64,000 nt of DNA from Polyangia bacterium (lineage in GTDB: Bacteria > Myxococcota_A > Polyangia > JAAYKL01): assembly GCA_046484285.1 (NCBI GenBank), contig JAWOBP010000186.1:10178-74177 (forward strand), read 5' to 3'. The notes under the pieces are model-generated. The model saw only the letters and a program-made list of their open reading frames with translations. It was not told where the DNA came from and made no database searches. Each line of letters begins with the position of its first letter. The first letter of the stretch is position 1. Shown in pieces: positions 3,003 through 61,599 of the stretch. Made by a program: the position numbers and the translations under genes.

Positions 3003-3081
3003 TGTCCCCATGTCGAGCTGCCGAGGCTCCTTTCGCGACCGGTCCTCCTCCTCGGCAGACCATGGTCCGACCGTCCAACCC

Positions 3082-3125
3082 TCCGACCCGTCCGACCCGT
3101 CCGACCCGTCCAACCTGTCCAAACT
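3082..3125. repeat. tandem 9-bp repeat (TCCGACCCG x3 plus two degenerate units)
   Basis: tccgacccgtccgacccgtccgacccgtccaacctgtccaaac, immediately 3' of the four-helix-bundle gene stop (3129). Confidence 0.8.
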
Positions 3126-3128
3126 CTT

Positions 3129-3677: not shown

Positions 3678-4338
3678 GAAAAACCTCCTTTGGAGGTAGA
3701 TATCGACCGTTCGGGCCGAAGAGTTGCAAAAAAGATCGTCTTCGCGGTGCTGGTGCTGCTGGCCAGCTCGCCGGGAAAGCGGCGGAGCGTCGATGAGATA
3801 GAGGAGTGGCTGGCGGGCATCGGCGCCTCGCTGCCGGCGGAGCTGTCCAACGAGTGGGTTCTGCGCGACAGGTTGCTGCAGCCGTTTCGGCGATCGCTCG
3901 ACGGCGGGGCGGAGACGACCAGCGGCGAGATCGAGAGGCTGGTGGCGATCGATTCCAAAGGCGGTCTCGAGCTGTCCCTCGACCCGGCGAGAGTCGCGAT
4001 CGTGGGCTTCGAGCGTCCCGCTCCGGCCTGCTGACATCCCGGACCCCATCCGGCGAAATCCTTTCGCCAGAGGAGGCCCGGCAACCACGGCTGGACGAGA
4101 CCTCCGGCGCTGTACCGCGGGGACGAGCCCCGCGGCCACGAGGCCCGCCTTCGCCCGGGCGCAGGCGGGCAGCCCCTGCGGGCAAGGCCCCCCGGCCCCC
4201 TTTCCCGCCAGCGGAAAAGGGGGAGTCTGTGTGCCGGGAATCCGAGGGAGGGGAATGGGCCCGCGGGGGAGGGCCGGGGGAGGGCCGAAGAGACGGGCGG
4301 ACGGAAGGCTCCTTTCGCAGTGGCGCCGGCTTCCGACC

Positions 4339-10916: not shown

Positions 10917-11734
10917 CGCGGCGCGGACCGGAGCCGATCCCCACGCGCGTCGGGCTCAGCGGAGAGCGGGGAAACAGGTTTTGCGGGAAGTCCGTAGAGC
11001 GCGATCTGGTCGGCTGTTCGACTCCTTTGGATCTGGTCGCGCTCTGCTCGTTGGGACGACCAATCGATGAGGCGGAACACCGTTCGTTGAGCGATTTGTC
11101 CGTTGTGCTCACGGCTGCCGATCCCCGCATCTGGCCGCTCAAGCTGACAAGGCTGTTGGCATGCTACGGAAGATCCTTTTGCGGTATCGCCGGTGGGGTG
11201 CTCGGTCTGGTGGGCAATTCGCTTGGGCCTCAGTCGACTCAGGATGCCGCCGAGATGTTATGGAAGGTCTCTCGAGCACGCGAAGTGATCAGCGACGATG
11301 AAGGGGAGCTGCGCCGTTTGGTCGAAGAAGAAATCGGGAAACGTGGATACGTTCCCGGGTTCGGGATTCCGTATCGAAGCGTCGATGTGCGCTTGTCGGC
11401 TCTCGATCGCGAGATGGCCGAGCTCGAGAGAGATCGGCTGCCCTTCTACCGCTTGAAAGGATTGTTCCAACAGGTCGCATCAACCAGCTTCCCCAAGCTG
11501 ATACCGAACGTATCGCTGGGCGGGGCGGCGCTTTGCCTGGACATCGGTTTTCGCCCGGACCAGATAGCGCCGCTGGTGCTGTGGCTGGTTTCGCACACCT
11601 ATTTTTGCAACGCCGCCGAGGAGGCCTCCTCCAAGACGCCAGTCGGGCGGTCATTGCTGGAAACATCGATTGACTACGTGGGAAGATCTCCGCGTCGTTC
11701 CTCGCGGGAGGTCGAAGCCTCGACAAGCCGCTGA
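10913..11734 (+). CDS. citrate-synthase-like protein, C-terminal half (split gene; catalytic His apparently replaced)
   Basis: GYVPGFGIPYRSVDVRLSAL aligns with the citrate synthase VPGYGHAVLRKTDPR loop but has I in place of the catalytic His; ATGA overlap with upstream half. Confidence 0.5.
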   Translation: MTRRGPEPIPTRVGLSGERGNRFCGKSVERDLVGCSTPLDLVALCSLGRPIDEAEHRSLSDLSVVLTAADPRIWPLKLTRLLACYGRSFCGIAGGVLGLVGNSLGPQSTQDAAEMLWKVSRAREVISDDEGELRRLVEEEIGKRGYVPGFGIPYRSVDVRLSALDREMAELERDRLPFYRLKGLFQQVASTSFPKLIPNVSLGGAALCLDIGFRPDQIAPLVLWLVSHTYFCNAAEEASSKTPVGRSLLETSIDYVGRSPRRSSREVEASTSR

Positions 11735-49107: not shown

Positions 49108-50865
49108 TCAGTCCGGGGCGAACTGGAAGGTGTGCACGGGACGCTGCTCGAGCTCGGCCAGCGCCGCGGTCGTCTCCGGCGGGAACGCCACGCGCAGGAT
49201 CACGTTGCGGTCGTTCTCGGTTCCCGAGCCGTTCTCGCCGCTGCCGTCCTGTACGTCGTAGAGTCCATAGAAGCGACCTCCCGCCAGCACGGGCATCTCG
49301 CCGGGAATCTGGTAGTCGAGCATCGTGCAGTAGATGCTCCCGGTGCCGTCGCGCTCGTCCACCAGCTCCACGAGCCGCGTCTGCTGCGGCCAGATTGCGG
49401 TGGCCGAGGTCTCGATTTCCCAAAAGCCGTGCTCCGGGGGCAGACCTTCGGGAGCAGGGTGGGGCGTTACGCGGTTGAAGTGCGAGTGGCCTCCTACGTG
49501 CGCCACCACGCCCGGGTGGTCGATCAGCATCGCCGACAGCGCCTGGCGCTCGTCCTGGTCGTCGATGCTGTTCAAGCTGTGGTGAGCGGCGACGATCACC
49601 GGCCTGCCTTGGTTCTCCGCCGCGTCCAGCGCGGCCAGCAGCCACTCCTGGCGGGGCGCGTCGAACGTGCCCCACTGGCCGGAGTCGGAGACCGTGTCCA
49701 TCACGATCAGCGCAAGGGGCGAGCCCGGGAACGGTTCCTCTACCACGTAGCTCCCCCAGCCGGTGTCCAGATTCGACTGCTGGTAGCCGTGCCCGACCGG
49801 AGAGGTGATCGTGTCGAAGAAGACCGAGGTCCAGTCGTAGCGCCCGAAGAACGCGCGGTCGTAGTCCGGGATCACCTCGCTGCCGTCGAAGTACGCCTTG
49901 GGAGGCATGTAGCAGCGCTCGGGAATGAGCGACTCGGTCTGGTACCAGGGCTGCTCGAGGCAGACCGCGGTCACCGCGTCGTTCAGCCAGGACAGCGTCT
50001 GGTTCTTGTTGGCCGAGTCCCCGGCCGGATCGGCCAGCATCCACGAGACCAGCGGTCCATTGCCCAGCTCGAGCAGATCGTGGTTGCCGGGAGTCACGTA
50101 CCAGGGGATGTCCGCGGGGAATCCCTGGGCGATGAAGGGGTCGTGCGGGTCGTTGCCCGCGCCCGGGATCGGGTCGTCGTCGTCCCCGGAATCTGGATCG
50201 ACGATGCCCCCTTCGAACACGGTGTAGAACCATTCCAGCTCGTTGTGCTGGATGTTGTCCACCATGTCGCCGGTCAGCAGCGCGAAGTCGAAGCGGTGGT
50301 GGGCCGAGAACAGCCCGGCGGTGCGGACCGCCGCCTCGAGGAGTTGGGCGGTCAGGTTCTCCTGGTAGCGGTAGGAGGACTCGTAGAGCATGTCGCCGTG
50401 GATCAGGCGCGCGGGCGACTCCTCGTCGATGATCTGCGAGTCGGTGACGTGCCAGACGAACGCCAGCGACGACGGATCGCCGAGCGGATCGGCCTCGCTC
50501 TCACCGACGTCCAGGTCGTCGCGCTGCACGAACGGCTCGCCGGCTCCGATCTCGGTCAGGCCCCACTCGGAGCGATCCGGTCCTGCCAGGGGCTCGGCGG
50601 GCAGCAGCGGAAAGATCGTCTCTTCGAGAGTGGTGGGCGGACACGGAGGGAGCTCGCCGGTATCGGTGTCGGTTTCCGTGTCGGTCTCGCTCGCCGAGTC
50701 GCTCGAGGTGTCGCCGAAGGTGTCGCTGTCGAGCTGGGTGCCGGTCTCCGACGACGTGTCGTCCTCGGCAGAGCCCGACCCGCCCGATCCGCGGCAGCCG
50801 GAGATCGCCGTGATCGCGGCGAGAGAGAGAACGGCTGCGAGAGGGGAGGATGACGCTTTGGACAT
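49108..50865 (-). CDS. calcineurin-like metallophosphoesterase lipoprotein
   Basis: Lipobox AITAISGC; GDMVDNIQHNELEWF, GNHD, GHSH metallophosphatase motifs; Asp/Ser/Thr-rich linker after lipobox. Confidence 0.75.
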   Translation of the reverse strand: MSKASSSPLAAVLSLAAITAISGCRGSGGSGSAEDDTSSETGTQLDSDTFGDTSSDSASETDTETDTDTGELPPCPPTTLEETIFPLLPAEPLAGPDRSEWGLTEIGAGEPFVQRDDLDVGESEADPLGDPSSLAFVWHVTDSQIIDEESPARLIHGDMLYESSYRYQENLTAQLLEAAVRTAGLFSAHHRFDFALLTGDMVDNIQHNELEWFYTVFEGGIVDPDSGDDDDPIPGAGNDPHDPFIAQGFPADIPWYVTPGNHDLLELGNGPLVSWMLADPAGDSANKNQTLSWLNDAVTAVCLEQPWYQTESLIPERCYMPPKAYFDGSEVIPDYDRAFFGRYDWTSVFFDTITSPVGHGYQQSNLDTGWGSYVVEEPFPGSPLALIVMDTVSDSGQWGTFDAPRQEWLLAALDAAENQGRPVIVAAHHSLNSIDDQDERQALSAMLIDHPGVVAHVGGHSHFNRVTPHPAPEGLPPEHGFWEIETSATAIWPQQTRLVELVDERDGTGSIYCTMLDYQIPGEMPVLAGGRFYGLYDVQDGSGENGSGTENDRNVILRVAFPPETTAALAELEQRPVHTFQFAPD

Positions 50866-50913
50866 GAACGGCTCCGCGAGGCGCGATCGTCCGAGGACCG
50901 CGAATCTTCACCA

Positions 50914-50926
50914 AATCATAACACAA
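50914..50926 (-). promoter_or_regulatory. extended -10-like motif TTGTGTTATGATT (minus strand) upstream of metallophosphoesterase gene
   Basis: Plus strand aatcataacacaa approx 50 nt upstream of start at 50865. Confidence 0.35.
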
Positions 50927-50978
50927 GAGGCCCGCCGGACGCGCGACGGACCGGAGAAATCTCGGGAAATCGAGCTGC

Positions 50979-51449
50979 TCAGTCGGCCAGGACCTGCTCG
51001 ATCGCCAGCTCTCCCAGGCGCGGCAGGCGAGCGGCGACGAGGTCGGAGAGCTTTTCTCCGATCTCGACCCGCAACGGCTCGATCCCGACCACGGTGGTGC
51101 GGGGACGGCGGCCGACCAGCTCGACGAAGTGCAGGATCTCGAGGATGCCGACCTGGTGCAGCGAGGTCTGGTAGCGGTCCGGCGCGGCGGTGACGTCCTC
51201 GGCCTCGAAGCGGTAGATCGTTCCGGGCTCCTCGCCGCCGCGCACGCAGTCGATCACCACCAGCCGATCCTGCTCGGCGACGATGTCCATCAGTCCGAAG
51301 CCCTCGATTCCGCCGTCGAAGAGGCTGATGCCCGGCGGCGCTCCCGAGCGTTCCAGGCGGCGCACGGCGTGCACTCCGGCGCCCTCGTCGCAGAGCAGAA
51401 CGTTTCCCACGCCGAGGATGCCGCGGCGTTGCTTGGGTCGGTCGCTCAT
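50979..51449 (-). CDS. hupD: [NiFe] hydrogenase maturation endopeptidase (HyaD/HupD/HynC family)
   Basis: GVGNVLLCDEGAGVHAV N-terminus and overall 156-aa length typical of the family. Confidence 0.8.
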   Translation of the reverse strand: MSDRPKQRRGILGVGNVLLCDEGAGVHAVRRLERSGAPPGISLFDGGIEGFGLMDIVAEQDRLVVIDCVRGGEEPGTIYRFEAEDVTAAPDRYQTSLHQVGILEILHFVELVGRRPRTTVVGIEPLRVEIGEKLSDLVAARLPRLGELAIEQVLAD

Positions 51450-51471
51450 GACAGGAGAGCCTACCTCGAGA

Positions 51472-53037
51472 TCAGGTTCCGGTCACCGGGTCGACCACGT
51501 AGCGCCTCAGCTCGTTGGTGCGGGGGTGGATCATGTGGATCGCGCAGGCCAGGCAGGGATCGAAGGAGCGCACCACGCGCACCACGTTGATCGGGTTGTC
51601 CGTGTCGGGCACCGGGATCCCGATCAGCGACTCCTCGTATTGCCCGCGCACCCCGGACTCGTCGCGCGGAGAGGCGTTCCAGGTGGAGGGCACCACCGCC
51701 TGGTAGCGCTTGGTCTTGCCGCCCTCGATCGTTATCCAGTGACCGAGCGCGCCGCGCGGAGCGTCGTAGAAGCCGGCTCCCTCGCCCTTGTCCGGCGGAT
51801 CCCAGTGCTGCGTGTCGTGGATTTCGAAGCCCTTCTTGCCCATCTGGGATTCGAGCTGGTCGAGCCAGCCCTGCATCGCCTCGACCAGCAGCAGGTTCTC
51901 GAAGGCGCGGCTGGCGTGGCGCGCCACCACGCCCGGCTTGGCGCCTTTCTCGACCAGGCCCATCAGGTCCTTGTTCTTCATCACCAGCATCCGTGCCAGG
52001 GGACCGACCTCCATCGGCTTTCCGTCGTAGCGCGGCGCCTTGACGAAGCTGTAGGCGTTCTCCCTGTCGCGGTTGACTTCCTGCGTTCCCCGCGAGGGGT
52101 GGACCGGGTCCGCCTCCTCGTACCAGGCGTGCTCCACCGACTCGGTGATCTTCTTCTGATCGAACTTCCCTATCTTGGCCAGATCGCCGGTGATCACGCC
52201 CGGAGTGAAGAACGGATCGCCGCCGTCCTTCTGGTCGAACGCTCCGTAGGCCAGGTAGTTGGGATGTCCCTTGCCGAAGCCACTTTTTGCCAGCCCGAAG
52301 AGCGGGCCGGTGCCCAGCGCCACGACGTCCTTGGCGTAGACGTCGCGGGTGAAGGCGGCCGCCTTTGCGAGCAGCTCGCGGAACTGCTTGATCCGATCCT
52401 TGGTCGGGAGCTGGGTCACGCCGCCGGGCACGATGCTCTGGTAGTGCGGTGCGCGCCCGCCGAAGATCGCGCCCATCTTCTTGCAGAGCATCTGCATCTC
52501 GAGTGCGTCGAGGTAGTGCTTGACCAGCGTGGTGACCGTCTCCGGGTCCTTGACGCAGTGCTCGTCGGGCTCGTAGCGCGGCGTGAGCGGATGGGTGTCC
52601 TTGCTCTCGACCAGCGCGACGATCTTTTTCTTGACCGCCTCGAGCTTGGGATCCTTGCCCTTGTAGTCGGCGACCGCCATCACGTCGATGTAGTCGAGCG
52701 CCGAGAGGTGGTAGAAGTGCAGGATGTGGTCGTAGAGGTACTGGGCGCCCATCACCAGGTTGCGCAGCAGGCGTCCACCGCTCGGCACCTCGGCGCCGAA
52801 CGCCGAGTCGAGCGCCAGCGAGGACGCCATCGTGTGCACGCTGAAGCAGACGCCGCAAAAGCGGCTGGTCACGTAGGCGGCGTCGCGAGGATCCTTGCCT
52901 TCCAGCATCTTCTCGAAGCCGCGGTACATCGTGCCACTGCTCCAGGCGTCCTTGACCTTGCCGTCCTCCACCTCGACCTCAATGCGGAGATGGCCCTCGA
53001 TGCGCGTTACGGGGTCGATTGCGATCTTCTGGCTCAT
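51472..53037 (-). CDS. [NiFe] hydrogenase large subunit
   Basis: N-terminal SRFCGVCFSVH (RxCGxC) and C-terminal DPCLACAIH nickel-binding motifs; ATGA overlap with small subunit. Confidence 0.9.
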   Translation of the reverse strand: MSQKIAIDPVTRIEGHLRIEVEVEDGKVKDAWSSGTMYRGFEKMLEGKDPRDAAYVTSRFCGVCFSVHTMASSLALDSAFGAEVPSGGRLLRNLVMGAQYLYDHILHFYHLSALDYIDVMAVADYKGKDPKLEAVKKKIVALVESKDTHPLTPRYEPDEHCVKDPETVTTLVKHYLDALEMQMLCKKMGAIFGGRAPHYQSIVPGGVTQLPTKDRIKQFRELLAKAAAFTRDVYAKDVVALGTGPLFGLAKSGFGKGHPNYLAYGAFDQKDGGDPFFTPGVITGDLAKIGKFDQKKITESVEHAWYEEADPVHPSRGTQEVNRDRENAYSFVKAPRYDGKPMEVGPLARMLVMKNKDLMGLVEKGAKPGVVARHASRAFENLLLVEAMQGWLDQLESQMGKKGFEIHDTQHWDPPDKGEGAGFYDAPRGALGHWITIEGGKTKRYQAVVPSTWNASPRDESGVRGQYEESLIGIPVPDTDNPINVVRVVRSFDPCLACAIHMIHPRTNELRRYVVDPVTGT

Positions 53038-54050
53038 GCCGCACTCTCCTTCTTGTTGTTGATGAGATGAAGGTTATTCGCGTACAGCGGCGAGTGTTTC
53101 TCGTAGAAGGTCGGCTCGGCGCATCCCTGGCACGGAGAGCCGCACTCGATGCAGTAGTTGACGCCCCCGTTGTACTTCCTGGTTGGGCAGTCCGAGTAGG
53201 TCTCGCCTCCCTTGCAGCCCTTCTCGGCCAGGCACCACTCGGCCTGCTTGGGGTCGTTCCAGTCTTGCAGGTAGTTGCCCTCGTCGTAGTGCTTCTTGCG
53301 CTCGCACTGGTCGTGGATCGTCTTGGCGTAGAACATCTTGGGCCGGCCGTGCTCGTCCAGCGGCGGCGCCTTTTCGTTGGTCAGGTAGTAGACCAGGGTC
53401 TGCACCAGGTGATCGTGGTGTGCCGGGCACATCGGCAGGTTGATCACCGGCTTGTCCTTCACCATCTGGTTCACGCCCATTCCGCGGCTCGGCGTGGCGC
53501 CCGGAATGCCGCCGTAGGTCGCGCAGGCTCCGAGGGCCACGATCGCCGAGGCCTGCTCGGCGCACTCGAGCACGATCTTCTCGAAGGGCTTGCCGCCCAC
53601 CGTGCAGAAGCGGTCGTCGGCGCCGGGGATCGATCCCTCGACCACCAGGATGTAGCCGCCCTCGGCCAGCGTGTTTTCCAGCGCCTTCTCGCTGACGTGA
53701 CCGGAGGCGGCCATCACCGCCTCGTGGTAGCGAAGCGAGATCTTGTCCAGCAGGATCTCGGCGATCGGCGGGTCCTCGGCATTGAGGAACGAGATGCTGC
53801 AACCCGCGCAGTCCTGCCCCTGGAGCCAGATCACCGGCGGCTTGCCCGCGGCCTTCTCCAGCTTCTCGGCCACCTTCTCGGCGCTCGGGCCTTTCTTCTT
53901 CTCGTCGCCCGGCGCGCCCTCATCGTCGCCTCCGCAACCGACTAGCGCCAGCGATCCGGCCAGCCCGCCGCAGTAGTAGAGGAAGTCCCGCCGCGAGACA
54001 GAGCCGAAGACCAGCTTTTCACCGTCGTGCTCTTTTTTCTTGCGCCCCAT
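53034..54050 (-). CDS. [NiFe] hydrogenase small subunit with Tat signal peptide
   Basis: SRRDFLYYCGGLAGSLALVGC twin-arginine leader; FeS-cluster Cys ligands (GCSISF..., CIECGSPCQGC). Confidence 0.85.
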   Translation of the reverse strand: MGRKKKEHDGEKLVFGSVSRRDFLYYCGGLAGSLALVGCGGDDEGAPGDEKKKGPSAEKVAEKLEKAAGKPPVIWLQGQDCAGCSISFLNAEDPPIAEILLDKISLRYHEAVMAASGHVSEKALENTLAEGGYILVVEGSIPGADDRFCTVGGKPFEKIVLECAEQASAIVALGACATYGGIPGATPSRGMGVNQMVKDKPVINLPMCPAHHDHLVQTLVYYLTNEKAPPLDEHGRPKMFYAKTIHDQCERKKHYDEGNYLQDWNDPKQAEWCLAEKGCKGGETYSDCPTRKYNGGVNYCIECGSPCQGCAEPTFYEKHSPLYANNLHLINNKKESAA

Positions 54051-54139
54051 CTTTTTTCCTCCCGTGCGTCATTGTAGCTGTGTAGCTGTTCGTCGCTCAC
54101 CAGTAATAATAGATGGCAAGCACTATAGTATACAATTGT

Positions 54140-54190
54140 GAAAAATGAAACAGGAGAATGCGAGCCTTGCCCGGGCTGCTTGCGAGGAAG
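54140..54190 (-). terminator. candidate rho-independent terminator after lipoprotein gene / before hydrogenase promoter
   Basis: Minus-strand GC-rich inverted repeat (gcccgggc core) followed by U-rich tract (plus strand gaaaaatgaaa); sits in 170-nt AT-rich gap. Confidence 0.3.
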
Positions 54191-54219
54191 TGTAACAGGC
54201 TTGAGATAAAGAGTTTTTT

Positions 54220-54900
54220 TTACATCGGCATGTTCATGTTGAAGTCGATGCTGACCCCGGAGACATCGTTTCCGTCGTAGGTGAACTCCGGGCACTGGCC
54301 GGTGCCGAAGGCGACCGGGTCGCCCTGAGCCGGGCCGTCCGTGCTGCAGTCTCCGCCGGCCTCCTGCAGGAAGCCCGAAACCACGTAGGCCTCGTCCACG
54401 GTCAGCGCCTGCATGACGATGAACTCCATGTCGAACGGCTCGGGACCGCCTCCGGACAGGTCGAAGCCGGTCTCCTGGCCGCCGGCGAAGGTGGTGATCT
54501 GTCCCATGTTGGACATCGCGGGGCACTCGTCCGAGATCGCCAGGCAGAGAGTGCCGACTCCGTCTCCGCCGCTCGGGATGTCGGCGGACTGCGAGACCGT
54601 GCCCGAGACGTTGATTGTATCGAGCCAGGTTCCGGTCTCGGTGTCGGAGTCCGCGTCGGTGTCTGTGTCGGCGTCGGAGTCCGCGTCTGTGTCGGCGTCG
54701 GAGTCCGCGTCGGTGTCCGCATCGGCGTCGGTGTCGGCGTCGGTATCGGCGTCCGAGTCCGAGTCCGAGTCCGAGTCGGTGTCCGAGTCGGTGTCCGCGT
54801 CGGTACCGCCGCCGCTGTCGTCGTCGCCGCAGGTCGCGGTCCCGAGGGCGCACAGCGCCACGATTGCCAGCAGGGTGATCGATTTGGAGAGAATCTTCAT
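54220..54900 (-). CDS. lipoprotein with (Asp-Thr/Asp-Ser/Asp-Ala)n linker and C-terminal Cys-containing domain of unknown function
   Basis: [32 protein letters not shown](TDAD..)n; strong RBS GGAAGGAGGCGGAAG before ATG. Confidence 0.55.
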
Positions 54901-54983
54901 CTTCCGCCTCCTTCCATGGTGTTCACGGCCATTGTGAGTCTTTTTGATGAGAAGTACACCTTGAGACAAAAAAGGACGGACGA

Positions 54984-56045
54984 TCAGTGGGTATGGCAGA
55001 TGCGGCACATCTTGTGCGAGGTGCGCTCGCCGGCCGGAACGGGCGGGGTCCAGCCCGGAGGGTGCGGGTCGACGCCGCCGGTGCTGTGGCAGCGCAGACA
55101 GTTGGAGGCCGGGCCCTGGTCGTGGCAGGCGGCGCACTCGTTGATCCTGCGGCGCGCGGCCCTGCTGTGCGAGTCGGCCGCGCCCGGCGTCATCCAGCTC
55201 GGCGGATGCGGGTTGCGTCGGCCGAGCCGGCCGCCGACGCCGTGCTGCTCGTGGCACGAGGAGCACGACGATCTGCCGTGGCACTTCATGCAGCTCGTAT
55301 CGCCGGTCCGCGCCTCGAGCGAGTGGCGCGTCATCCAGTCGCCCTGGTGCATGAAGCTGCGGTCCACGCGCTCTGGAAAGCGCAGCGAGGGACGCTGGGT
55401 CATCGTGCGGGCGTGGCAATCGGCGCAGTAGGCCTGGTCGTGGCAGACCGCGCAGGTCTGCTCGCCGCCGGCCGCGGCCCTGGCGCCGTGGCGATCGAAG
55501 AAGCCCTTCTCGTGCGAGTAGATCTCGCCCGACGGCACGCGCTGGTAGAGGTCGAGGCGGTGGTGGCAAAGCTTGCAGTCGCCGGAATCGAGATCATCCT
55601 GGTGGCAGGTATTGCACTCGACGTGGCCGGGCAGCAGGCGGTTCTCCGGGGTAACGTCCACCGCGTGGGCGGCGTCGCCGTGGCAGTCGGCGCAGTCTCC
55701 CGAGCGCTCCTGGTGGAGCTGGTGCGAGAAGACCAGGTGCGTGGGCTCGAGCCGATCGTAGCTGTCGGGAGCGTCGGTGTTGGTGTGGCAGGTGCCGCAT
55801 TCCTCGGCGCTCTCCACGTCGTGGCAGTCCGCGCAGCCGGACATCGCGGGCAGCGCCTCGGCCTCGCGATCGACGTCCTCGGCGATCCCGGCGTGGCAGT
55901 AGTCGCAGTCGACCCCCATCTCGGAGTGCACGTGGTGGGAGAACAGGATCGTGTCCGGGGCGTCGCTGGTGGCCGCCGAGCACGCCACCACCGCGGCCGT
56001 GACGGCCGAGAGCAGCAGTCCCTTGTTGCGCGAGAGTCTTGTCAT
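54984..56045 (-). CDS. multihaem cytochrome c lipoprotein (13 CxxCH motifs)
   Basis: [22 protein letters not shown] lipobox; CDYCH, CADCH, CGTCH, CADCH, CNTCH, CKLCH, CAVCH, CADCH, CMKCH, CSSCH, CAACH, CLRCH, CRICH. Confidence 0.75.
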
Positions 56046-57574
56046 TGCTCGTACCCCCGCTCGACGAAGTTCACGTCGAAGTTGTAGCTGAGCTTTAGCA
56101 TTCCGCGGACCTCGTGCTCGGCGTAGGGAGTGATGCCGGCCGCCACCGAGCCGCCGGTCTCGATGGTCCCGTTGCCGTAGAACAGCCCCACGTCGCCCAG
56201 AAAGCCCAGGTCGGTGTTTTCGATCTTCTGGTCGTAGAGATCGAGATAGGCGTTGGCCGCTGCCCGCAGGCCGGGCAGGGCGATCGGCACGATCGCTCCC
56301 AGCCGCAGCGAGTGGGCACCCAGCTCGTCCTGTCCCAGGCGGTGGTAGTCGAGCCGCACCAGCCCGTCGTTCCTTTCTCCGTAGCGCAGCAGCGCGCCCG
56401 CTTCGATGTCGTAGCCCAGCTCGGTCTCGGCGCCGTACCCGCTGGAGCTCCCAGCGTCGAAGCGCTCCTCGACGTAGCTGTAGAAACGATGGTGATATCC
56501 GGCCGAGAAGCTCAGCCAGGCGAGCGGGTCGACCCGCACGGCGCCGCCCACCGAGTCGTACTCCTCCATCGAAAACACAGAGAAGATTGACATCTTGGAC
56601 AGGTAGAGGGTCGGATCCGCGTGCCGGTAGTCTGCGGCGATCGAGACCATCTCGTGAGGATAGAGGTCGACCGCGAAGTTCGCCTCCTGGAGGCGCTTGG
56701 CCACCAGGTCGAGCGCCGCGTTGCCGCTGGCGCCCAGCCAGCTGAGCGGAGTCACGTCGAGGTCGACGCCGAGCAGCTGCCTGTCTATTTCGTCGAGCTC
56801 GGTGACGTGCAGCATCGAGACGCCGGCCGAGATCTTGCCTGTCATGCGGTAGAAGACGCGGCCGCCGACCGCGTAGTCGCCCTCGCGCTCCCAGTCGCTC
56901 AGGCCTCCGCCGAAGTCGCCGTAGCTCGGGTTGGCCGGCTGCTCGCGGTACCACTCGGGTCCGAGGTAGGGAGAGACGACCAGCCCGCCGTGCGCCTCGA
57001 TCCCGAGGTGGATCGGCGATTCGTACGAGGCGTAGAGGCCGTCGATGTGCAATCCGCGCGTGGCGCCGGTGTAGATCTGCTGGCGACCCAGCCGGACGTC
57101 GGCCCCGTAGTCCCTGAACTGCACGTAGAGGTAGGTCGGGTCGGCGACCGCCCGCTGATCGAAATACACGTCGGCCAGATCGACTCCGGCCCACCCCTGG
57201 AAGTGGACCGACAGGCCCGGGTGACCCAGCTCGTCTGCGCGCAGCTGAACGGTCTCGTAGAAGGGGAAGACCTTCATCGACCGCACGCCGTAGGCGCCGC
57301 CGCCCAGGTTGCGCATCCGGGCGCGCCGGGTGAAGAACATCTCCGAGCGCAGGCTGCCCGAGACCATCGGCCTGGGAGCGTCCGGGTCGTAGGGCTCGGG
57401 CTCGACCTCGGGAGGATCGGAAGCCGGGTCGACCTCGTCGCCGCCGTCTTCGCCTTCGGCGTCGCCGGTCTCTTCCGTCGCCGCCTCTTCTGTCTCTTCC
57501 TCGTCTTCCGCCTGGGCAAAGACCGAGCCCGGGGACGCGACGAGCAGGCCGATGGAAATCAAAACGGCGCGCAC
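56042..57574 (-). CDS. outer-membrane beta-barrel (porin-like) protein with acidic N-terminal extension
   Basis: Signal peptide MRAVLISIGLLVASPGSVFAQA; Glu/Asp-rich approx 60 aa then beta-strand-rich body ending ...NFVERGYEQ; 4-nt overlap with cytochrome gene. Confidence 0.6.
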   Translation of the reverse strand: MRAVLISIGLLVASPGSVFAQAEDEEETEEAATEETGDAEGEDGGDEVDPASDPPEVEPEPYDPDAPRPMVSGSLRSEMFFTRRARMRNLGGGAYGVRSMKVFPFYETVQLRADELGHPGLSVHFQGWAGVDLADVYFDQRAVADPTYLYVQFRDYGADVRLGRQQIYTGATRGLHIDGLYASYESPIHLGIEAHGGLVVSPYLGPEWYREQPANPSYGDFGGGLSDWEREGDYAVGGRVFYRMTGKISAGVSMLHVTELDEIDRQLLGVDLDVTPLSWLGASGNAALDLVAKRLQEANFAVDLYPHEMVSIAADYRHADPTLYLSKMSIFSVFSMEEYDSVGGAVRVDPLAWLSFSAGYHHRFYSYVEERFDAGSSSGYGAETELGYDIEAGALLRYGERNDGLVRLDYHRLGQDELGAHSLRLGAIVPIALPGLRAAANAYLDLYDQKIENTDLGFLGDVGLFYGNGTIETGGSVAAGITPYAEHEVRGMLKLSYNFDVNFVERGYEQ

Positions 57575-57575
57575 G

Positions 57576-58145
57576 TCACACTCCTCCGTCGCCGGACGCG
57601 AGGTCCACGTTGCCGTTGAGGTGGATCTCGGAGCTCAGTCCGCCGTCCAGGTAGGCCGAGGCGTGGCAGCTCGCGCAAGCCGAGTCGTCGGGGTGCGGAT
57701 CGAGCGGGGGCAGCCCGTGGCAGTCGCCGCACGAGACCTGCTCGGTGTCGTCCCAGCGGGGCGCCGGGTTGCTTCCGCCGCTCAGCGTCCCGCCGTGGCA
57801 GTAGACGTTCACGCAGCTAGCACCGTCGAAGTACGGCTCGGCTCCGCCGGCCGTGGCCAGGCCGCCGTCGGCGAACACGACGTCGACCACCGCGTCGAGG
57901 TGATCCTGGGAGAACCACTCACCGGGAATCCGGTGGCAGTCCTCGCAGGTCATGCCCGGAGCGCCGAACGGGCCGCCGGTGCTCATGTGGAGCTGATGGG
58001 CTCCGGAATCGGGGTTCATCGAGTGGCACATCTCGCAACCGTCTCCGCCCGCGTCGCCCTCGTCGTCCCTGACTTGCAGGCAGGAAGTCGAGGCAATGCA
58101 TATCAATGCGATCGGTACCAAGCGCCATTGCTTTTCGGGGATCAT
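57576..58145 (-). CDS. secreted/lipoprotein multihaem cytochrome c (about 5 haem sites)
   Basis: MIPEKQWRLVPIALICIASTSC leader; CEMCH, CEDCH, CHGG, CGDCH, CASCH. Confidence 0.6.
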   Translation of the reverse strand: MIPEKQWRLVPIALICIASTSCLQVRDDEGDAGGDGCEMCHSMNPDSGAHQLHMSTGGPFGAPGMTCEDCHRIPGEWFSQDHLDAVVDVVFADGGLATAGGAEPYFDGASCVNVYCHGGTLSGGSNPAPRWDDTEQVSCGDCHGLPPLDPHPDDSACASCHASAYLDGGLSSEIHLNGNVDLASGDGGV

Positions 58146-58441
58146 CGGCCGGGACCTCCTGGGGCTTCGACCCGCGTGTAAACGCCGGTCTCTGACTGAT
58201 TTCTCCAGAGCGTCAACGCATGTTTTTTTTGTAACGGAGCACCGAACCGGGGCGAGTGTCGCCAATCCAGGCCACAAAATCAAGAGCTTGCTGACAAAAA
58301 GGGCAATATCAAACTGACTGAACGAAAACTAAAGATACAAATTCAATGTATACCATAAAAGTGCTGAATAGCCCATTCTATATTACACCAAACTACTGCT
58401 ATATAAGTTGTTGTCAATTGGCCAGTTTTTTACTTGAATTG

Positions 58442-58480
58442 ATAGCCTAGCGGCTATAAAAAAGGCGTGTCTTGTGACAC
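58442..58480. promoter_or_regulatory. two adjacent palindromes (ATAGCC-N4-GGCTAT and GTGTC-N4-GACAC) in AT-rich divergent control region
   Basis: Read directly, 40-80 nt upstream of the 58522 cytochrome gene; surrounding 58290-58520 is conspicuously AT-rich. Confidence 0.3.
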
Positions 58481-58521
58481 GGGTAACAATTCCGGTATCG
58501 ACTCGATTCTCGGAGATCGAA

Positions 58522-60069
58522 ATGAATGGAGCAGGGAAATTGAAAAGAGTCTCGTTGCATTTGGTATTTTGGGCCTCGAACGCCTTTTTTCTGGCGGCCG
58601 TGCTCGCGATCGGTTGCGACGGCTCCTCGGGCGCCTCGAGCTCGGCCGACGCGGGCGACACGGACAGCCAGACGGACGGGGCCGACACCGAAGCGGCCGG
58701 CCCGTCAACCTGCCTCGAGTGTCACCTCGATGAAGATGCCCTGATCGCCAGCCTGGAGGCGGATCCGCTGCCCGAAGAGGAAAAGGAGGAGGAGGAATCC
58801 ACCGGCGAAGGGTGAGGCGGAGAGTTGCCTCCGTTGGAGGCATGGGAGAAGGTCCTGGTCTCCGAGGATTTCCTCGCGGATCGCCACTTCGCGGAGTTCT
58901 TCTTTTCGGACTGCACTTGGTGCCACGGCGGAGATGATTCCGCCGAGGCGCGCGCCGCGGCGCACGAGGGAATGGATCCCTACCCCTCGCTGGCCGACAG
59001 CGAGATGTGCGGCGGAGCCTGCCACGGCGACGAAACCGAGATGTTCCACACCGGCCTGCACTACGACAACCGCGGGATAGTCCACCCCGAGCGCAGCCAG
59101 ATCGCGCTGCGCGCCGGAGAGGAGACGCTGCCGGCGATCCAGGAGGCGCTCGGCAACCACTGCGCCGACTGTCACTCCAAGGCCTGCGGAGACTGCCACA
59201 TCACGCGGCCTCGCTACTCCGAGGGCGGGTTCGTCAAGGGGCATGTCTTCTATTCGACCCCCAAGGCGACGCTCAACTGCACCGGCTGTCACGGCAGCCG
59301 GGTCGAGAAGGAGATGCTGGCCAAGGGCGGGTTGGATTTCGAAGGCGAGGTGGTCGAGACGAAGTACGACGTGCACTGGAACCCGAACGCGATGTCGTGC
59401 GACGTGTGCCACGGGGGCCACGACGCCGACCTGGCCGAGGTCTACCACCGCTACGACCGGCCCGACGCCCCGCGCTGCGAGGACTGCCACCAGCAGCAGA
59501 TCACCGACGCGGGCAACCAGATGCACGCCGTCCACGCGCTGGCCGGAGGCGAGGCCCCGATGCTGCAGTGCCAGGTCTGCCACTCGCAGCCCTACAACAA
59601 CTGCCGCGGGTGCCACCTGAAGCAGTCCGAGCAGGGCAGCTGCTATTACGATCTCGACAAGTCGTGGTTCGATTTCAAGATAGGCAAAAATCCGCTCGAG
59701 AGCGCAGAGCGGCCGTACGACTACGTGGTGTTGCGCCACGTTCCGGTGGACCGCGACACCTTCTCGCACTACGGCGACGATCTGCTGACGAGGTTCGACG
59801 ATCTGCCCACGTGGAAGTACGCCACGCCGCACAACGTGATCAAGGAGATCGATGTCGACGGCGAGCCTCAGCCGCCGCCCCAGGCCAGGGGATGCAACAG
59901 CTGTCACGGGCACCCGGAGCTGTTCCTCACCGCCGAGGTGGTCGAGCAGGTGGATCCCGAAGAGCTCGAGGCCAACTCCGAGGTTATCGTGGACTCGATT
60001 CCCGGGCCACTCGAGGGAGACGGAGGGCCGGGGCCCGGTCCGGACGGCGGTCCGGACGGCGGGGTGTAG
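58522..60069 (+). CDS. multihaem cytochrome c lipoprotein (11 CxxCH) interrupted by a single in-frame TGA at 58813-58815
   Basis: ORF1 58522-58815 (signal + lipobox LAIGC, DS/DT linker, CLECH) and ORF2 58825-60069 (10 CxxCH, no signal peptide, TTG 'start') are in the same frame separated only by TGA; stable hairpin TGCCTCCgttGGAGGCA 11 nt downstream of the TGA. Confidence 0.6.
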
Positions 60070-60143: not shown

Positions 60144-61250
60144 ATGAAGAAGAGCTTTTTGTTGTGCTTGCTGGCTGTGGGACTGCTCGCGTTTCCACTG
60201 TTGACGGCGGGATGTGGCGACGATGACGACGGCGGATCCGGAGACGCGGACACGGACGCGGACACCGACGCGGACACGGACGCGGACACCGACGCGGACA
60301 CCGACGCGGACACTGATTCCGACTCCGACACCGACGGCGACGCCGACCTGCTGGGCGATGTGTTCGGTCCGCTCGACGGATATGTGGACGACGAAGAGAT
60401 CAAACCGGTGATCGCTCCCGATTCGATTTACAATGACGTGGTCGTGGGCGGCAGCGAGGACTACCAGCTGATCGACGTGCGCCCGGCGGACCATTTCTCC
60501 GGCGGCCACATCGAGGGCGCGGTCAACTTGCCGTGGGGAGAGGACTGGGCCACGAGCACGGTGCTCGACGAGATCGACGACTCGCTGGCGCAGGTCATCA
60601 TCTGTCACACCGGCCACCGGGCAAGCTACCTGACCGCCTATCTGCGCCAGCTCGGATACGACGCCTACGCGATGAAGTTCGGCATGATGGGCTGGACCGG
60701 CGACCTGGACGTGATCGGGCTCGACGCCACCTACTGCAGCAGCTCGGCTCTGCCCGGCGACTACGCCACGGTCAGCGAGGCGACCGAGGCTACGACCGGA
60801 GATCTGCCCACGATCGAGTCCGACAACAGCGGCGACGACCTGATCATGGAGCTGGCCGGAGCCTACTTCGGCCTCGATGGCCAGCCCCCGGTGGTCAAGC
60901 CCCCCGACATCTACAACGACGTGATCGTGGGCGGCTCCGAGGACTACTACATGGTCGACGTGCGCAAGGCCGAGCACTACGAGGCCGACCACATCGAGGG
61001 AGCGGTGAGCATTCCTTACGGCACGTGGAACGACGAGATCGTCCTCGAGTCCATTCCAATGGACAAGAAGATCGTGACGATCTGCTACACGGGCCACACC
61101 GCCAGCCAGATGGCGATGATCCTGAGCGAGGTGGGCTACGAGGCCTACGCGATGGCCTACTCGATGATGGGATGGCACTCGGACACCGAGATCATCGGCA
61201 GCGAGGGCATCTGCTCCTGCGACGCCGATTACCCGGTGGTGACCGACTGA
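60144..61250 (+). CDS. tandem-rhodanese (sulfurtransferase-like) lipoprotein with (DADT)n linker
   Basis: Lipobox LLTAGC; two rhodanese modules with active-site loops CHTGHRA and CYTGHTA. Confidence 0.7.
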   Translation: MKKSFLLCLLAVGLLAFPLLTAGCGDDDDGGSGDADTDADTDADTDADTDADTDADTDSDSDTDGDADLLGDVFGPLDGYVDDEEIKPVIAPDSIYNDVVVGGSEDYQLIDVRPADHFSGGHIEGAVNLPWGEDWATSTVLDEIDDSLAQVIICHTGHRASYLTAYLRQLGYDAYAMKFGMMGWTGDLDVIGLDATYCSSSALPGDYATVSEATEATTGDLPTIESDNSGDDLIMELAGAYFGLDGQPPVVKPPDIYNDVIVGGSEDYYMVDVRKAEHYEADHIEGAVSIPYGTWNDEIVLESIPMDKKIVTICYTGHTASQMAMILSEVGYEAYAMAYSMMGWHSDTEIIGSEGICSCDADYPVVTD

Positions 61251-61377: not shown

Positions 61378-61599
61378 ATGAAAAAGCTACTCGTCGGCTT
61401 GGCGGCTGTTTCCATGCTGGTCAGCACGGTCGTGATGGGCAGCGTCTCGCTGAACAAGCCCCACAAGGGGATGGAGGGCAAGGACGGCGACAAGATCAAC
61501 TGCGTCTATTGCCACAACAAGGCGGGCAACCCCAAGGAGGGCAAGGACTACGACAAGTACAAGAAGGGCCCGTACTGCAAGAAGAGCGGCTGCCACTGA
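61378..61599 (+). CDS. small secreted Lys-rich cytochrome c (CVYCH plus CKKSGCH sites)
   Basis: Signal peptide MKKLLVGLAAVSMLVSTVVMG; 73 aa; one CxxCH and one CxxxxCH. Confidence 0.5.
   Translation: MKKLLVGLAAVSMLVSTVVMGSVSLNKPHKGMEGKDGDKINCVYCHNKAGNPKEGKDYDKYKKGPYCKKSGCH

Follow-up and report, generated by a model that had tools for sequence, protein, structure and literature searches.

The closest described systems to the locus reported here are the porin-cytochrome (Pcc) clusters, i.e., the two-gene type of Anaeromyxobacter and Ca. Kuenenia and the ExtEFG and ExtABCD clusters of Geobacter, which it resembles by architecture. Pcc porins have 18–22 predicted strands, and in the two-gene clusters the porin is accompanied by a 12–14-haem cytochrome of 338–344 aa (PMC4245776). 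Geobacter extEFG lies within a transcription unit that includes hydrogenase genes (PMC6148476). In addition, periplasmic formate dehydrogenase (FDH) and hydrogenase have been described as able to replace one another in supplying electrons to c-type cytochromes (PMC5539420).

We have analysed a stretch of 64,000 nucleotides from a Polyangia bacterium (hereafter the window), in which an initial annotation had proposed an H2-driven outer-membrane electron-transfer pathway. Our results indicate that the region consists of two separable modules, which most likely share electrons by way of c-type haems located beyond the cytoplasmic membrane.

Gene array and junctions

Gene coordinates and motif checks agree on seven co-oriented minus-strand genes between 50979 and 58145 (Table 1), as had been predicted. 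The small cytochrome gene is followed by the barrel gene after a 1-nt gap (TGA-C-GTG), and the barrel gene overlaps the 13-haem cytochrome gene by 4 nt (ATGA); both junctions, as well as the count of 13 haem motifs, are those given in the initial annotation.

Table 1 Features of the locus, with positions in the window.
Feature	Position	Strand	Characteristics
Terminator-like hairpin	50929..50952	-	9-pair stem with 7 G-C pairs, then a T-rich tail; directly after the protease gene
HyaD/HybD-type maturation endopeptidase	50979..51449	-	PF01750; TIGR00072 at 128.8 bits; HycI/HybD protease in the family search
[NiFe] hydrogenase large subunit	51472..53037	-	521 aa; NF033181, PF00374; nickel ligands CGVC and DPCLACAIH
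[NiFe] hydrogenase small subunit	53034..54050	-	Tat motif SRRDFL, then lipobox LVGC and a ~35-residue linker
Conserved block, candidate promoter/operator	54111..54157	-	From the alignment of the window with L001; inside the 169-nt spacer 54051-54219
D/T-linker lipoprotein	54220..54900	-	~60-residue D-T/D-S linker; ~135-aa C-terminal domain with cysteines; no haem site
13-haem c7/c3-type lipoprotein cytochrome	54984..56045	-	353 aa; 13 CxxCH; lipobox VVAC
Outer-membrane beta-barrel	56042..57574	-	510 aa; Sec signal; ~45-residue acidic disordered N-terminal extension; ~22 strands
Small lipoprotein cytochrome	57576..58145	-	189 aa; 4 CxxCH and 1 CxxxxCH; lipobox
Divergent multihaem lipoprotein cytochrome	58522..60069	+	Two parts in frame across TGA 58813-58815
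Tandem-rhodanese lipoprotein	60144..61250	+	Two PF00581 domains; D-T linker; lipobox LTAGC
Small secreted lysine-rich protein	61378..61599	+	73 aa; one CxxCH and one CxxxxCH

The barrel and its cytochromes

In the profile search, a check that had been suggested for the barrel, no curated family model matched. The structure model gives a beta-barrel of roughly 22 strands, that is, a large barrel rather than a generic outer-membrane protein of fewer than 16 strands, which the initial annotation had named as the contrary outcome. Judged by its homologues, the barrel is a member of a large, widespread and uncharacterised family, whose genes are almost always directly followed by that of a ~350-residue, 12–14-haem lipoprotein cytochrome. 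This pairing is present in all of the 20-odd loci examined and holds even in a 30%-identical relative (L019). Upstream of the barrel, a small lipoprotein cytochrome of the CxxxxCH type is usual (14 loci), and the cytochrome-barrel-cytochrome trio recurs as a unit across the related loci examined. We have also found a natural fusion, P0253, in which one part is homologous to the barrel (E 5e-34) and the other to the 13-haem cytochrome (E 1e-62, 40% identity). Its cytochrome portion lies at the barrel C-terminus, replacing the lipoprotein signal, which points to a physical complex in which the cytochrome N-terminus is at the periplasmic rim.

The barrel might instead be an ordinary porin or transporter, flanked by cytochromes that are periplasmic rather than membrane-crossing; in favour of this, its sequence could not be matched to that of a characterised conduit protein. 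This reading is very improbable given the constant 12–14-haem partner with its start/stop overlap, the P0253 fusion, and the position of the L019 and L028 barrel loci within multihaem-cytochrome islands.

The small cytochrome is assigned by TIGR01904 (55 bits, cutoff 27) and PF09698 to the CxxxxCH/CxxCH domain family, and its homologues keep the lipobox and five haem sites. The atypical fifth site (CxxxxCH) had been missed before. We consider this protein a candidate for the surface-side cytochrome of the conduit. The 13-haem cytochrome contains Cytochrome_C7 domains, and its PDB matches are ActA and multi-c7-domain cytochromes; the homologues keep the lipobox and carry 12–14 haems. It is the obligate partner of the barrel and a candidate for the trans-barrel haem wire. 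For the D/T-linker lipoprotein, family libraries give low-complexity matches only, and the single-sequence AF2 model has a pLDDT of 36, too low to use. Among the related loci its orthologue occurs in L001 only, i.e., the gene is lineage-specific.

A periplasmic hydrogenase without cytochrome b

The large subunit matches the NiFeSe_Hases model NF033181 at 754 bits (cutoff 600), with Cys, not Sec, in the nickel ligands. Its nearest solved structures are the periplasmic [NiFe] and [NiFeSe] enzymes of Desulfovibrio and Desulfomicrobium (E ~1e-118 to 1e-112). By these matches the three genes at 50979–54050 encode a complete group-1 periplasmic [NiFe] hydrogenase.

In the small subunit the Tat motif is followed by a lipobox, and there is no C-terminal membrane helix. 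The same lipobox after the Tat motif is found in L001, L013, L014 and L015, while the small subunit of the cytochrome-b-linked relative L017 has a hydrophobic C-terminal tail instead. From these signals the hydrogenase is predicted to be Tat-exported and lipid-anchored via its small subunit. The lipobox had gone unnoticed in the initial annotation.

The family search gives zero matches to Ni_hydr_CYTB among the operon genes, and the cytochrome b of L017 has no tblastn match anywhere in the 64-kb window, as expected from the earlier statement that a membrane cytochrome b is lacking. Cytochrome b is also absent beside the hydrogenase in the four closest sampled relatives (L001, L013, L014 and L016). 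A hydrogenase without cytochrome b or another quinone-reducing subunit must pass its electrons to a periplasmic redox protein. Together with the nearest solved relatives, this bears out the comparison with Desulfovibrio HynAB, although no tetrahaem c3 gene lies within the 64-kb window.

What adjoins the conduit in related loci

The window and its 92%-identical relative L001 are the only loci in which the hydrogenase adjoins the conduit; of the others, 10 extend for 2 kb or more past the conduit on the downstream side, and none of these has a hydrogenase there. One metagenome-assembled genome (MAG) has both modules on different contigs, the conduit with FDH (L007) and the hydrogenase with hyp genes (L014). 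The neighbours of the hydrogenase relatives vary, including hyp genes, an [FeFe]-hydrogenase-like gene and a GFO/IDH oxidoreductase. On the other hand, the trio directly follows FdhA-FdhB-FdhE in seven loci (L002, L004, L006, L007, L020, L021 and L023; gaps of 13–25 nt), which span at least three lineages. None of these seven has FdnI, the FDH cytochrome b, and their FdhA is Sec-containing, with a Tat signal and lipobox, and scores 1099 bits on TIGR01553. That is, the conduit is again paired with a low-potential periplasmic dehydrogenase, but the enzyme is another one. This recurring pairing, seen in gene order, supports in part the H2-to-outside model of the initial annotation.

These patterns could also mean that an independent three-gene hydrogenase cassette has come to lie beside a conduit operon with no functional link to it, its true acceptor cytochrome being encoded elsewhere. 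Such a history would fit the restriction to one lineage, the unrelated contexts of the hydrogenase relatives, and the presence between the modules of two AT-rich spacers and of a lipoprotein gene that is confined to this lineage. Synteny with L001 stops directly upstream of the small cytochrome, so the area has been rearranged. We regard such a history as unlikely, since the conduit family recurs beside another cytochrome-b-free periplasmic dehydrogenase in at least three lineages, and all seven genes are co-oriented with no terminator-like site until past the protease gene. In L015, moreover, a same-clade hydrogenase comes immediately after a lipoprotein cytochrome with a D/T linker, which is a relative of the 5-haem cytochrome (cytA5-like).

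The shared lipid anchors raise another arrangement, analogous to Shewanella DmsEFAB with its Tat-exported molybdoenzyme outside the outer membrane: the hydrogenase (FDH in relatives) would sit at the cell surface and the conduit would carry its electrons inward. Both enzymes have a Tat signal and lipobox followed by flexible linkers, many lipoproteins in the window bear long acidic linkers, and there is an established precedent in conduits that end in a DMSO reductase outside the cell (cited in PMC6148476). We hold this arrangement to be most unlikely, because the genes beside the cluster include none for a secretion system, because H2 and formate should cross the outer membrane freely, leaving no evident advantage, and because the P0253 fusion places the 13-haem cytochrome, not the enzyme, at the barrel.

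Spacer and transcription signals

The 169-nt spacer upstream of the small subunit (54051–54219) has a G+C content of 44%, compared with ~66% for the window. Within it, ~47 nt are near-identical between the window and L001 while the rest has diverged, and a consensus scan of the spacer found no sigma-70-like or terminator-like site. The AT-rich spacer and the conserved block, a candidate promoter or operator, suggest that the hydrogenase has a separate control region. The hairpin past the protease gene, the sole terminator-like site on the minus strand in 50900–57300, likely marks the end of the hydrogenase transcript. Overall, of the seven-gene unit first proposed, the trio stands as conserved, but the hydrogenase adjacency does not.

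Separate control would also fit independent use of the modules. The conduit might import electrons from minerals, partner cells or electrodes, with hydrogenase or FDH as an alternative donor, both feeding a common periplasmic cytochrome pool and, through it, an unlinked inner-membrane complex. There would be no flow between hydrogenase and conduit, and the genes would cluster through shared regulation as electron-donor systems. Energy would be conserved, unlike in a purely periplasmic H2-to-outside route, and the same reasoning has been put forward for sulfate reducers that can alternate between hydrogenotrophy and cytochrome-c3-mediated uptake of extracellular electrons (PMC5539420). Among the relatives, several belong to MAGs labelled CSMAG, which is also in line with it. 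Nevertheless, a single working unit would account more readily for the operon-like spacing of FDH and conduit genes in seven loci, and no inner-membrane cytochrome or quinone-reductase genes are nearby in the window; we thus give this scheme a minor chance, perhaps one in five.

Divergent plus-strand genes

The divergent cytochrome and rhodanese genes begin 330–380 nt upstream of the small cytochrome, in accordance with the distance of about 380 nt reported earlier; both are missing from L001. The divergent cytochrome comprises a part with signal, lipobox and one haem site and a 9-haem part without its own signal peptide, split by the in-frame TGA, which had been overlooked. Past the UGA, at a distance of 20 nt, is a 6-bp hairpin whose loop is GUU; such hairpins occur at 0.11% of window positions, by criteria set after this one was seen. 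The gene is possibly a selenoprotein gene or a pseudogene. The rhodanese lipoprotein has the active-site loops CHTGHR and CYTGHT. A 38%-identical homologue of the 73-aa protein adjoins a barrel module in L010, and we consider this protein a candidate periplasmic dihaem carrier.

Proposed route

Our working model is that hydrogenase and conduit act in series, passing electrons from H2 to the cell exterior via haems, and we see the chances for and against it as about even. More generally, the module probably wires periplasmic hydrogen or formate chemistry to the outside of the cell. The barrel would form the pore of a porin-cytochrome conduit. Next to it, on the periplasmic side of the outer membrane, the 13-haem cytochrome would be anchored N-terminally and presumably threaded into the barrel, and the 5-haem cytochrome would be at the cell surface. 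Electrons from H2 would pass from the Ni-Fe site through the three Fe-S clusters of the lipid-anchored small subunit to the 13-haem cytochrome, either without an intermediate or by way of a small cytochrome, for example the 73-aa dihaem protein. They would then cross the barrel, reach the 5-haem cytochrome and be passed on to an extracellular acceptor. In relatives a cytochrome-b-free FDH would take the place of the hydrogenase. The haem chain is reversible in principle, and the outward direction is our reading. Such a route would bypass the quinone pool. By itself it would be an electron sink or exchange path, not proton-pumping respiration.

Several observations speak against the series route. 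The hydrogenase adjacency is confined to one lineage, and the L007 and L014 modules are on separate contigs; the spacer and its conserved block point to separate hydrogenase control; and the window has no tetrahaem c3 gene. By chemiosmotic bookkeeping, a purely periplasmic path should conserve no energy by itself. In addition, the 13-haem cytochrome is a lipoprotein, whereas the Mtr and Pcc models have soluble periplasmic cytochromes. The H2-driven model of the initial annotation keeps its conduit architecture and its cytochrome-b-free enzyme and gains the FDH analogue, but has neither a conserved hydrogenase linkage nor a sequence likeness to Mtr.

Comparison with known systems

The divergent genes recall the selenite/tellurite-linked cluster ExtHIJKL(M-S) of Geobacter, where a barrel and multihaem cytochromes likewise have a rhodanese-family lipoprotein as neighbour. 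One cytochrome of that cluster also has an in-frame TGA, possibly for selenocysteine (PMC6148476). In the window, however, the corresponding genes are on the opposite strand and absent from L001, and the ExtM and ExtN models score at chance level (14–17 bits, cutoffs 200–800).

With Shewanella MtrCAB and DmsEFAB, the locus would share a cytochrome wire within a barrel and a lipoprotein redox protein at the surface, and DmsEFAB is an example of a Tat-exported enzyme being wired to a conduit of this kind. MtrB is larger, with 26–28 strands and ~650–700 residues against ~22 and 510 here, and the MtrA/DmsE decahaem model reaches 16 bits (cutoff 192), in the small cytochrome only. The conduit fits the Pcc architecture but is not Mtr-like in sequence.

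The hydrogenase resembles Desulfovibrio HynAB, the [NiFeSe] enzyme Hys and FdhAB in being two-subunit and Tat-exported, without cytochrome b; like them it has a dedicated protease. Its nearest solved relatives, the Desulfovibrio enzymes, reduce cytochrome c3. It differs in its lipoprotein small subunit and in the lack of a tetrahaem c3 gene nearby, and its neighbouring cytochromes form an outer-membrane module, not the inner-membrane Qrc, Tmc or Hmc.

In contrast to the Pcc clusters, where the many-haem cytochrome is soluble in the periplasm, that of the window is a lipoprotein; the gene order is small cytochrome, barrel, large cytochrome, and the barrel matches no curated model. The hydrogenase beside extEFG is a cytoplasmic Hox-type enzyme, in contrast to the periplasmic group-1 enzyme here, and relatives have periplasmic FDH in the same array. 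Several features are shared: the barrel is at the top of the 18–22-strand range, the adjacent cytochrome has ~340–350 residues and 12–14 haems, and a small lipoprotein cytochrome, with 5 haems and CX4CH sites of atypical form, is an optional addition (PMC4245776, PMC6148476). As in the Pcc and Ext clusters, it is the third component that varies, the porin-cytochrome pair being conserved (PMC4245776, PMC6148476).

Gene layout of the module and its surroundings

In this G+C-rich window (~66% G+C), the initial annotation had read seven co-oriented minus-strand genes as an outer-membrane or extracellular electron-transfer pathway driven by H2, or its reverse. All seven have been recovered at exactly the same positions (see the table), and the tight spacing claimed for the first three is seen in the sequence, i.e., a gap of 1 nt between the small cytochrome and the barrel gene, and an overlap of 4 nt (ATGA) between the barrel gene and that of the 13-haem cytochrome. 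These three are called the conduit trio below. The 13-haem cytochrome carries c7/c3-type domains and the small cytochrome a CxxxxCH/CxxCH domain (TIGR01904); the barrel protein and the following linker lipoprotein have no family match in Pfam or NCBIfam, and AF2, run on the single sequence of the lipoprotein domain, gave no usable model (pLDDT 36). Neither hyp maturation genes nor formate dehydrogenase (FDH) genes were found within the window.

Several unrelated lipoproteins of the window have long acidic D-T/D-S repeat linkers directly after the lipidated cysteine. Such linkers seem to be a habit of this organism, and they may indicate long tethers. One of these lipoproteins, the 438-aa protein first labelled 'vWA', has no Pfam match.

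Coordinates of the features discussed, in the window unless another locus is named
Feature	Locus	Position	Strand	Remarks
Small cytochrome, 189 aa		57576-58145	-	lipoprotein signal; 4 CxxCH and 1 CxxxxCH
Barrel protein, 510 aa		56042-57574	-	Sec signal
Large cytochrome, 353 aa		54984-56045	-	lipobox; 13 CxxCH
D-T/D-S-linker lipoprotein		54220-54900	-	long linker
Conserved spacer block, ~47 nt		54111-54157	-	
Counterpart of spacer block	L001	~11222-11268		
Hydrogenase small subunit		53034-54050	-	
Hydrogenase large subunit		51472-53037	-	
Hydrogenase endopeptidase		50979-51449	-	
D-T/D-S-linker lipoprotein, metallophosphoesterase		49108-50865		
D-T/D-S-linker lipoprotein, 438 aa		47725-49041	-	no Pfam match
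TGA-split cytochrome		58522-60069	+	TGA at 58813-58815
Hairpin after the TGA		58827-58841		
D-T/D-S-linker lipoprotein, tandem rhodanese		60144-61250	+	
Dihaem protein, 73 aa		61378-61599	+	lysine-rich; homologue beside barrel module in L010
Dihaem protein homologue	L010	8968-9204		
438-aa lipoprotein homologue	L010	7643-8827		
Tat-lipobox small subunit	L001	11298-12314		
Tat-lipobox small subunit	L013	~3067-4023		called start 3112 falls inside the signal peptide
Tat-lipobox small subunit	L014	7018-8004		
Tat-lipobox small subunit	L015	7000-8004		
Hydrogenase genes	L015	7000-10077		
Two genes upstream of hydrogenase	L015	4661-6963	+	
Ni_hydr_CYTB gene	L017	9570-10160		
P0253 gene	L028	7001-9325		barrel-cytochrome fusion

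The conduit trio in related genomes

We have recovered 7 related barrel loci from genomes and 8 from metagenomes, and several more through exact-protein look-ups. In every locus a homologue of the 13-haem cytochrome lies directly 3' of the barrel gene, with 12-14 haem motifs and the lipobox kept, and in 14 loci a small-cytochrome homologue, a lipoprotein of the CxxxxCH type, is found upstream of the barrel gene. The same trio surrounds a barrel of only ~30% identity (locus L019).

The large cytochrome has 13 CxxCH motifs within 353 residues, and its conserved lipobox points to a protein that is membrane-tethered and not soluble. For P0253, a distant barrel relative, the arrangement is different in form. 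It is a single 774-aa protein in which a barrel homologue (E 5e-34) continues directly into a 13-haem cytochrome homologue (40% identity, E 1e-62), a short linker standing in place of the lipoprotein signal. In this fusion the cytochrome N-terminus is placed at the barrel end that faces the periplasm. A lipid anchor, or fusion to the barrel C-terminus, would each keep the N-terminus on the periplasmic side of the outer membrane. We infer that the anchor and the fusion are equivalent in this respect, and regard the equivalence as the best available evidence for one complex of the barrel and the 13-haem cytochrome. The P0253 gene lies in a multihaem cytochrome island, together with a CxxxxCH-type cytochrome of 717 aa and a multihaem protein of 918 aa with collagen repeats. 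Overall, the porin-cytochrome reading of the trio is well supported by its conservation in relatives, by a barrel of ~22 strands, and by the P0253 fusion.

In another locus (L010), the 73-aa dihaem protein and the 438-aa lipoprotein each have a homologue next to the barrel-cytochrome pair, on the opposite strand. This likeness to the window hints at a wider conserved neighbourhood.

A large barrel family without a curated model

The AlphaFold2 model of the barrel, built with 28 homologues (pLDDT 75.5), has 22 beta-strands after an acidic disordered N-terminal stretch. This extension (residues 22-68, EDEEETEEAATEETGDAEGEDGGDE...) is acidic, proline-containing and of low confidence, stands ahead of the first strand, and differs in length between homologues.

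All 60 close homologues are unnamed or called 'hypothetical protein', and those with an organism given are MAG proteins annotated as Polyangia, 'Deltaproteobacteria', or other uncultured bacteria. An exhaustive profile search (E<=1e-3) enlarges the family to 894 clusters at 50% identity. Among 20 distant cluster representatives, none is named for a function or comes from a cultured organism, and almost all are 'hypothetical' or unnamed; P0253, which is one of them, bears the label 'cytochrome c7-like protein'. No curated Pfam or NCBIfam model matches the barrel or these distant relatives, the family profile retrieved nothing real from the PDB sequences, and when the word-indexed search was repeated with a broader alignment, it gave already known proteins only. 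To judge from these searches, the barrel matches no named family. Such a large unnamed family (~900 clusters at 50% identity) could be used to trace extracellular electron transfer among uncultured Myxococcota and lineages related to them, and current marker sets based on Mtr, Omb or Ext would overlook the organisms carrying it.

A probably lipid-anchored hydrogenase without cytochrome b

The large subunit has the nickel ligand motifs CGVC and DPCLACAIH, with Cys and not Sec, and is matched by NF033181 (754 bits, cutoff 600) and PF00374 (E 2.6e-149); the small subunit is matched by TIGR00391 (286 bits), PF01058 and PF14720. Among solved structures, the periplasmic [NiFe] and [NiFeSe] enzymes of Desulfovibrio and Desulfomicrobium come nearest. 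By motifs and family models, the enzyme is assigned to the group 1 periplasmic [NiFe] hydrogenases.

After its Tat motif SRRDFL, the small subunit has a lipobox (LVGC) and then a linker of ~35 residues; its hydrophilic C-terminus has no membrane helix. Tat motif and lipobox are also combined in the small subunits of four relatives (L001, L013, L014 and L015), the lipoboxes of the clade being LVGC, LMGC, LLGC and AQGC. This implies a [NiFe] hydrogenase that is probably exported by Tat and anchored by lipid. A twin-arginine lipoprotein signal is known on a periplasmic [FeFe] hydrogenase (PMC10924467).

The operon consists of small subunit, large subunit and protease only. The earlier claim that a HyaC/HupC-type cytochrome b is missing holds for the operon and for the rest of the 64-kb window, where a tblastn search for the cytochrome b encoded in a related hydrogenase locus (L017) found nothing. 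Actually, the closest sampled relatives, with 76-95% large-subunit identity, are all bare small-large-protease operons without cytochrome b. Since L017, at 68% identity, still has a cytochrome b gene (between large subunit and protease) and a hydrophobic tail on the small subunit, the loss arose within the family and is a feature of this subclade. Without a membrane partner, the hydrogenase must therefore reduce a periplasmic carrier. No tetrahaem c3 gene is found within the window; the candidate acceptors would be the conduit cytochromes and the 73-aa dihaem protein.

Possible linkage of the conduit to hydrogenase and formate dehydrogenase

The hydrogenase adjoins the conduit only in the window and in its relative L001 (barrel 92% identical), and it is absent near the conduit in all ten other loci that have at least 2 kb of downstream sequence. 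In the MAG JAUXHN01, the conduit (L007) and a hydrogenase with hypFCD (L014) are on different contigs. The suggestion that the seven genes make one unit is thus not borne out by co-occurrence in relatives. The 169-nt spacer ahead of the small subunit has 44% G+C and contains a block (TCTCCTGTT..TCACAA..TATACTATA.TGCTT.CCATCT) that is kept in L001, the rest of the spacer having diverged; this block looks like a separate control site for the hydrogenase, i.e., a candidate regulatory site. As the sole terminator-like hairpin on the minus strand of 50900-57300 is located 3' of the protease gene, with no other upstream, transcription may still read through into the hydrogenase. A sigma-70 consensus scan of 50500-59000 gave no promoter, such a consensus being uninformative for this kind of organism. 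One explanation, which concerns the hydrogenase only, is that it lies beside the conduit by chance; we consider this rather unlikely in view of the following parallels.

In seven loci (L002, L004, L006, L007, L020, L021 and L023), FdhA-FdhB-FdhE genes are directly upstream of the trio on the same strand, the gaps being 13-25 nt. The Fdh identities (94-98%, 65% and 45%) indicate that the seven loci come from three lineages or more. With 1099 bits on TIGR01553 (cutoff 814), the conduit-linked FdhA is an alpha subunit of the formate dehydrogenase-N type. Its in-frame Sec codon is at the canonical place, and it has both a Tat motif and a lipobox; no FdnI cytochrome b is present in the seven arrays. 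In addition, two genes lie directly upstream of the L015 hydrogenase, which is from another genome and belongs to the same clade (67% identity in the large subunit). One encodes a secreted protein of 529 aa whose C-terminal half is barrel-like, and the other a 190-aa D-S/D-T-linker lipoprotein cytochrome related to the 5-haem cytochrome of the window. Overall, this conduit family is repeatedly found beside what appear to be lipid-anchored periplasmic enzymes, free of cytochrome b, for two classic low-potential donors. The pathway from H2 to the outside is still plausible, and has been strengthened by the FDH parallel, though not as one seven-gene unit.

The divergent 'second cytochrome' consists of two in-frame ORFs joined by a TGA. 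The first part carries a single haem site along with the signal peptide and a lipobox; nine haem sites fall in the second part, which lacks a signal peptide. At a SECIS-like spacing, 20 nt after the UGA, lies a perfect 6-bp hairpin whose loop is GUU; comparable hairpins occur at 0.11% of window positions, by a criterion chosen after seeing this one, and the MFE fold around the TGA is weakly better than shuffles (z = -2.1). Mainly from the gene logic and the hairpin position, a selenocysteine-containing decahaem lipoprotein made by read-through is plausible, also because relatives use Sec in FdhA. Alternatively, the gene may be a pseudogene. Both this cytochrome and the tandem-rhodanese lipoprotein are missing from L001.

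A possible route of electrons

We favour a series circuit, whose contacts, protein locations and direction of flow are all deduced indirectly. Electrons would pass from the distal Fe-S cluster of the hydrogenase to the 13-haem cytochrome, directly or via a small carrier, possibly the lysine-rich dihaem protein, and then through the barrel to the 5-haem lipoprotein and an external acceptor; the haem chain would be reversible in principle. Since these electrons never cross the cytoplasmic membrane, the route alone cannot build a proton-motive force. It might be a sink for H2 or formate made inside the cell, or might exchange electrons with minerals or partners. That a lipid-tethered hydrogenase without cytochrome b (FDH in relatives) plugs into an outer-membrane conduit, giving a quinone-free circuit wholly outside the cytoplasmic membrane, is put forward tentatively. 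In the main competing scheme, the conduit and the dehydrogenases would deliver electrons in parallel to one common pool of periplasmic cytochromes, and this pool would feed an inner-membrane complex not linked to them. This scheme conserves energy and was earlier proposed for sulfate reducers (PMC5539420); it is rather unlikely in our estimation.

If the quinone-free circuit is true, it would allow uncultured Myxococcota to convert diffusible H2 or formate into extracellular currents of electrons, and the reverse. Reducing power from fermentation could then be passed on to minerals or to partner cells, or external electrons could be used to make H2 or formate.

Comparison with known conduits

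Part of the analogy drawn initially, with OmaB-OmbB-OmcB and MtrCAB, can be kept: the Pcc (porin-cytochrome gene cluster) architecture fits, and Mtr does not, either by sequence or by size. MtrCAB membership was rejected, as it calls for a 26-28-strand MtrB/PioB-type barrel and an MtrA/DmsE-family decahaem cytochrome, a pair that the window module does not have. Pcc porins have 18-22 predicted strands (Shi et al., PMC4245776), and the modelled window barrel would likewise be the integral outer-membrane beta-barrel of ~18-22 strands in its cluster. In the two-gene Pcc clusters of Anaeromyxobacter and Ca. Kuenenia, the porin is accompanied by a 12-14-haem cytochrome of 338-344 residues, and outer-membrane Pcc cytochromes are the variable component, often with atypical CX3-4CH sites (PMC4245776). 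With its lipobox and five haem sites, the 189-aa cytochrome corresponds to the outer-membrane redox lipoprotein of such clusters, its surface location being predicted.

Jiménez Otero et al. define a conduit as a periplasmic multihaem cytochrome, a barrel, and one or more redox lipoproteins (PMC6148476). In the Geobacter conduit ExtEFG these are a dodecahaem cytochrome, a 21-strand barrel and a pentahaem lipoprotein, and extEFG shares a transcription unit with a Hox-type hydrogenase, a looser precedent for the present case (PMC6148476). The tandem-rhodanese lipoprotein and the TGA-split cytochrome recall Geobacter ExtH and ExtKL, ExtH in that a rhodanese lipoprotein is present in the window too, but the Ext models match neither. 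Identity with ExtHIJKL was rejected, the ExtM and ExtN models scoring at chance level, and curated NCBIfam, Ext models included, gave no above-chance match to the barrel or the cytochromes.

Overall, the module closely matches the Pcc/Ext architecture. The Pcc definition places next to the barrel a multihaem c-type cytochrome (5-15 haems) predicted to be periplasmic. On the other hand, the module differs in gene order, in a barrel that matches no named family, and in a many-haem cytochrome that is a lipoprotein. Known conduits draw on the quinone pool via inner-membrane cytochromes. A conduit family found repeatedly beside periplasmic, quinone-independent H2 and formate enzymes would shorten the route from these central anaerobic intermediates to minerals, electrodes and syntrophic partners, and this matters for the connection of interspecies H2/formate transfer with direct electron transfer.
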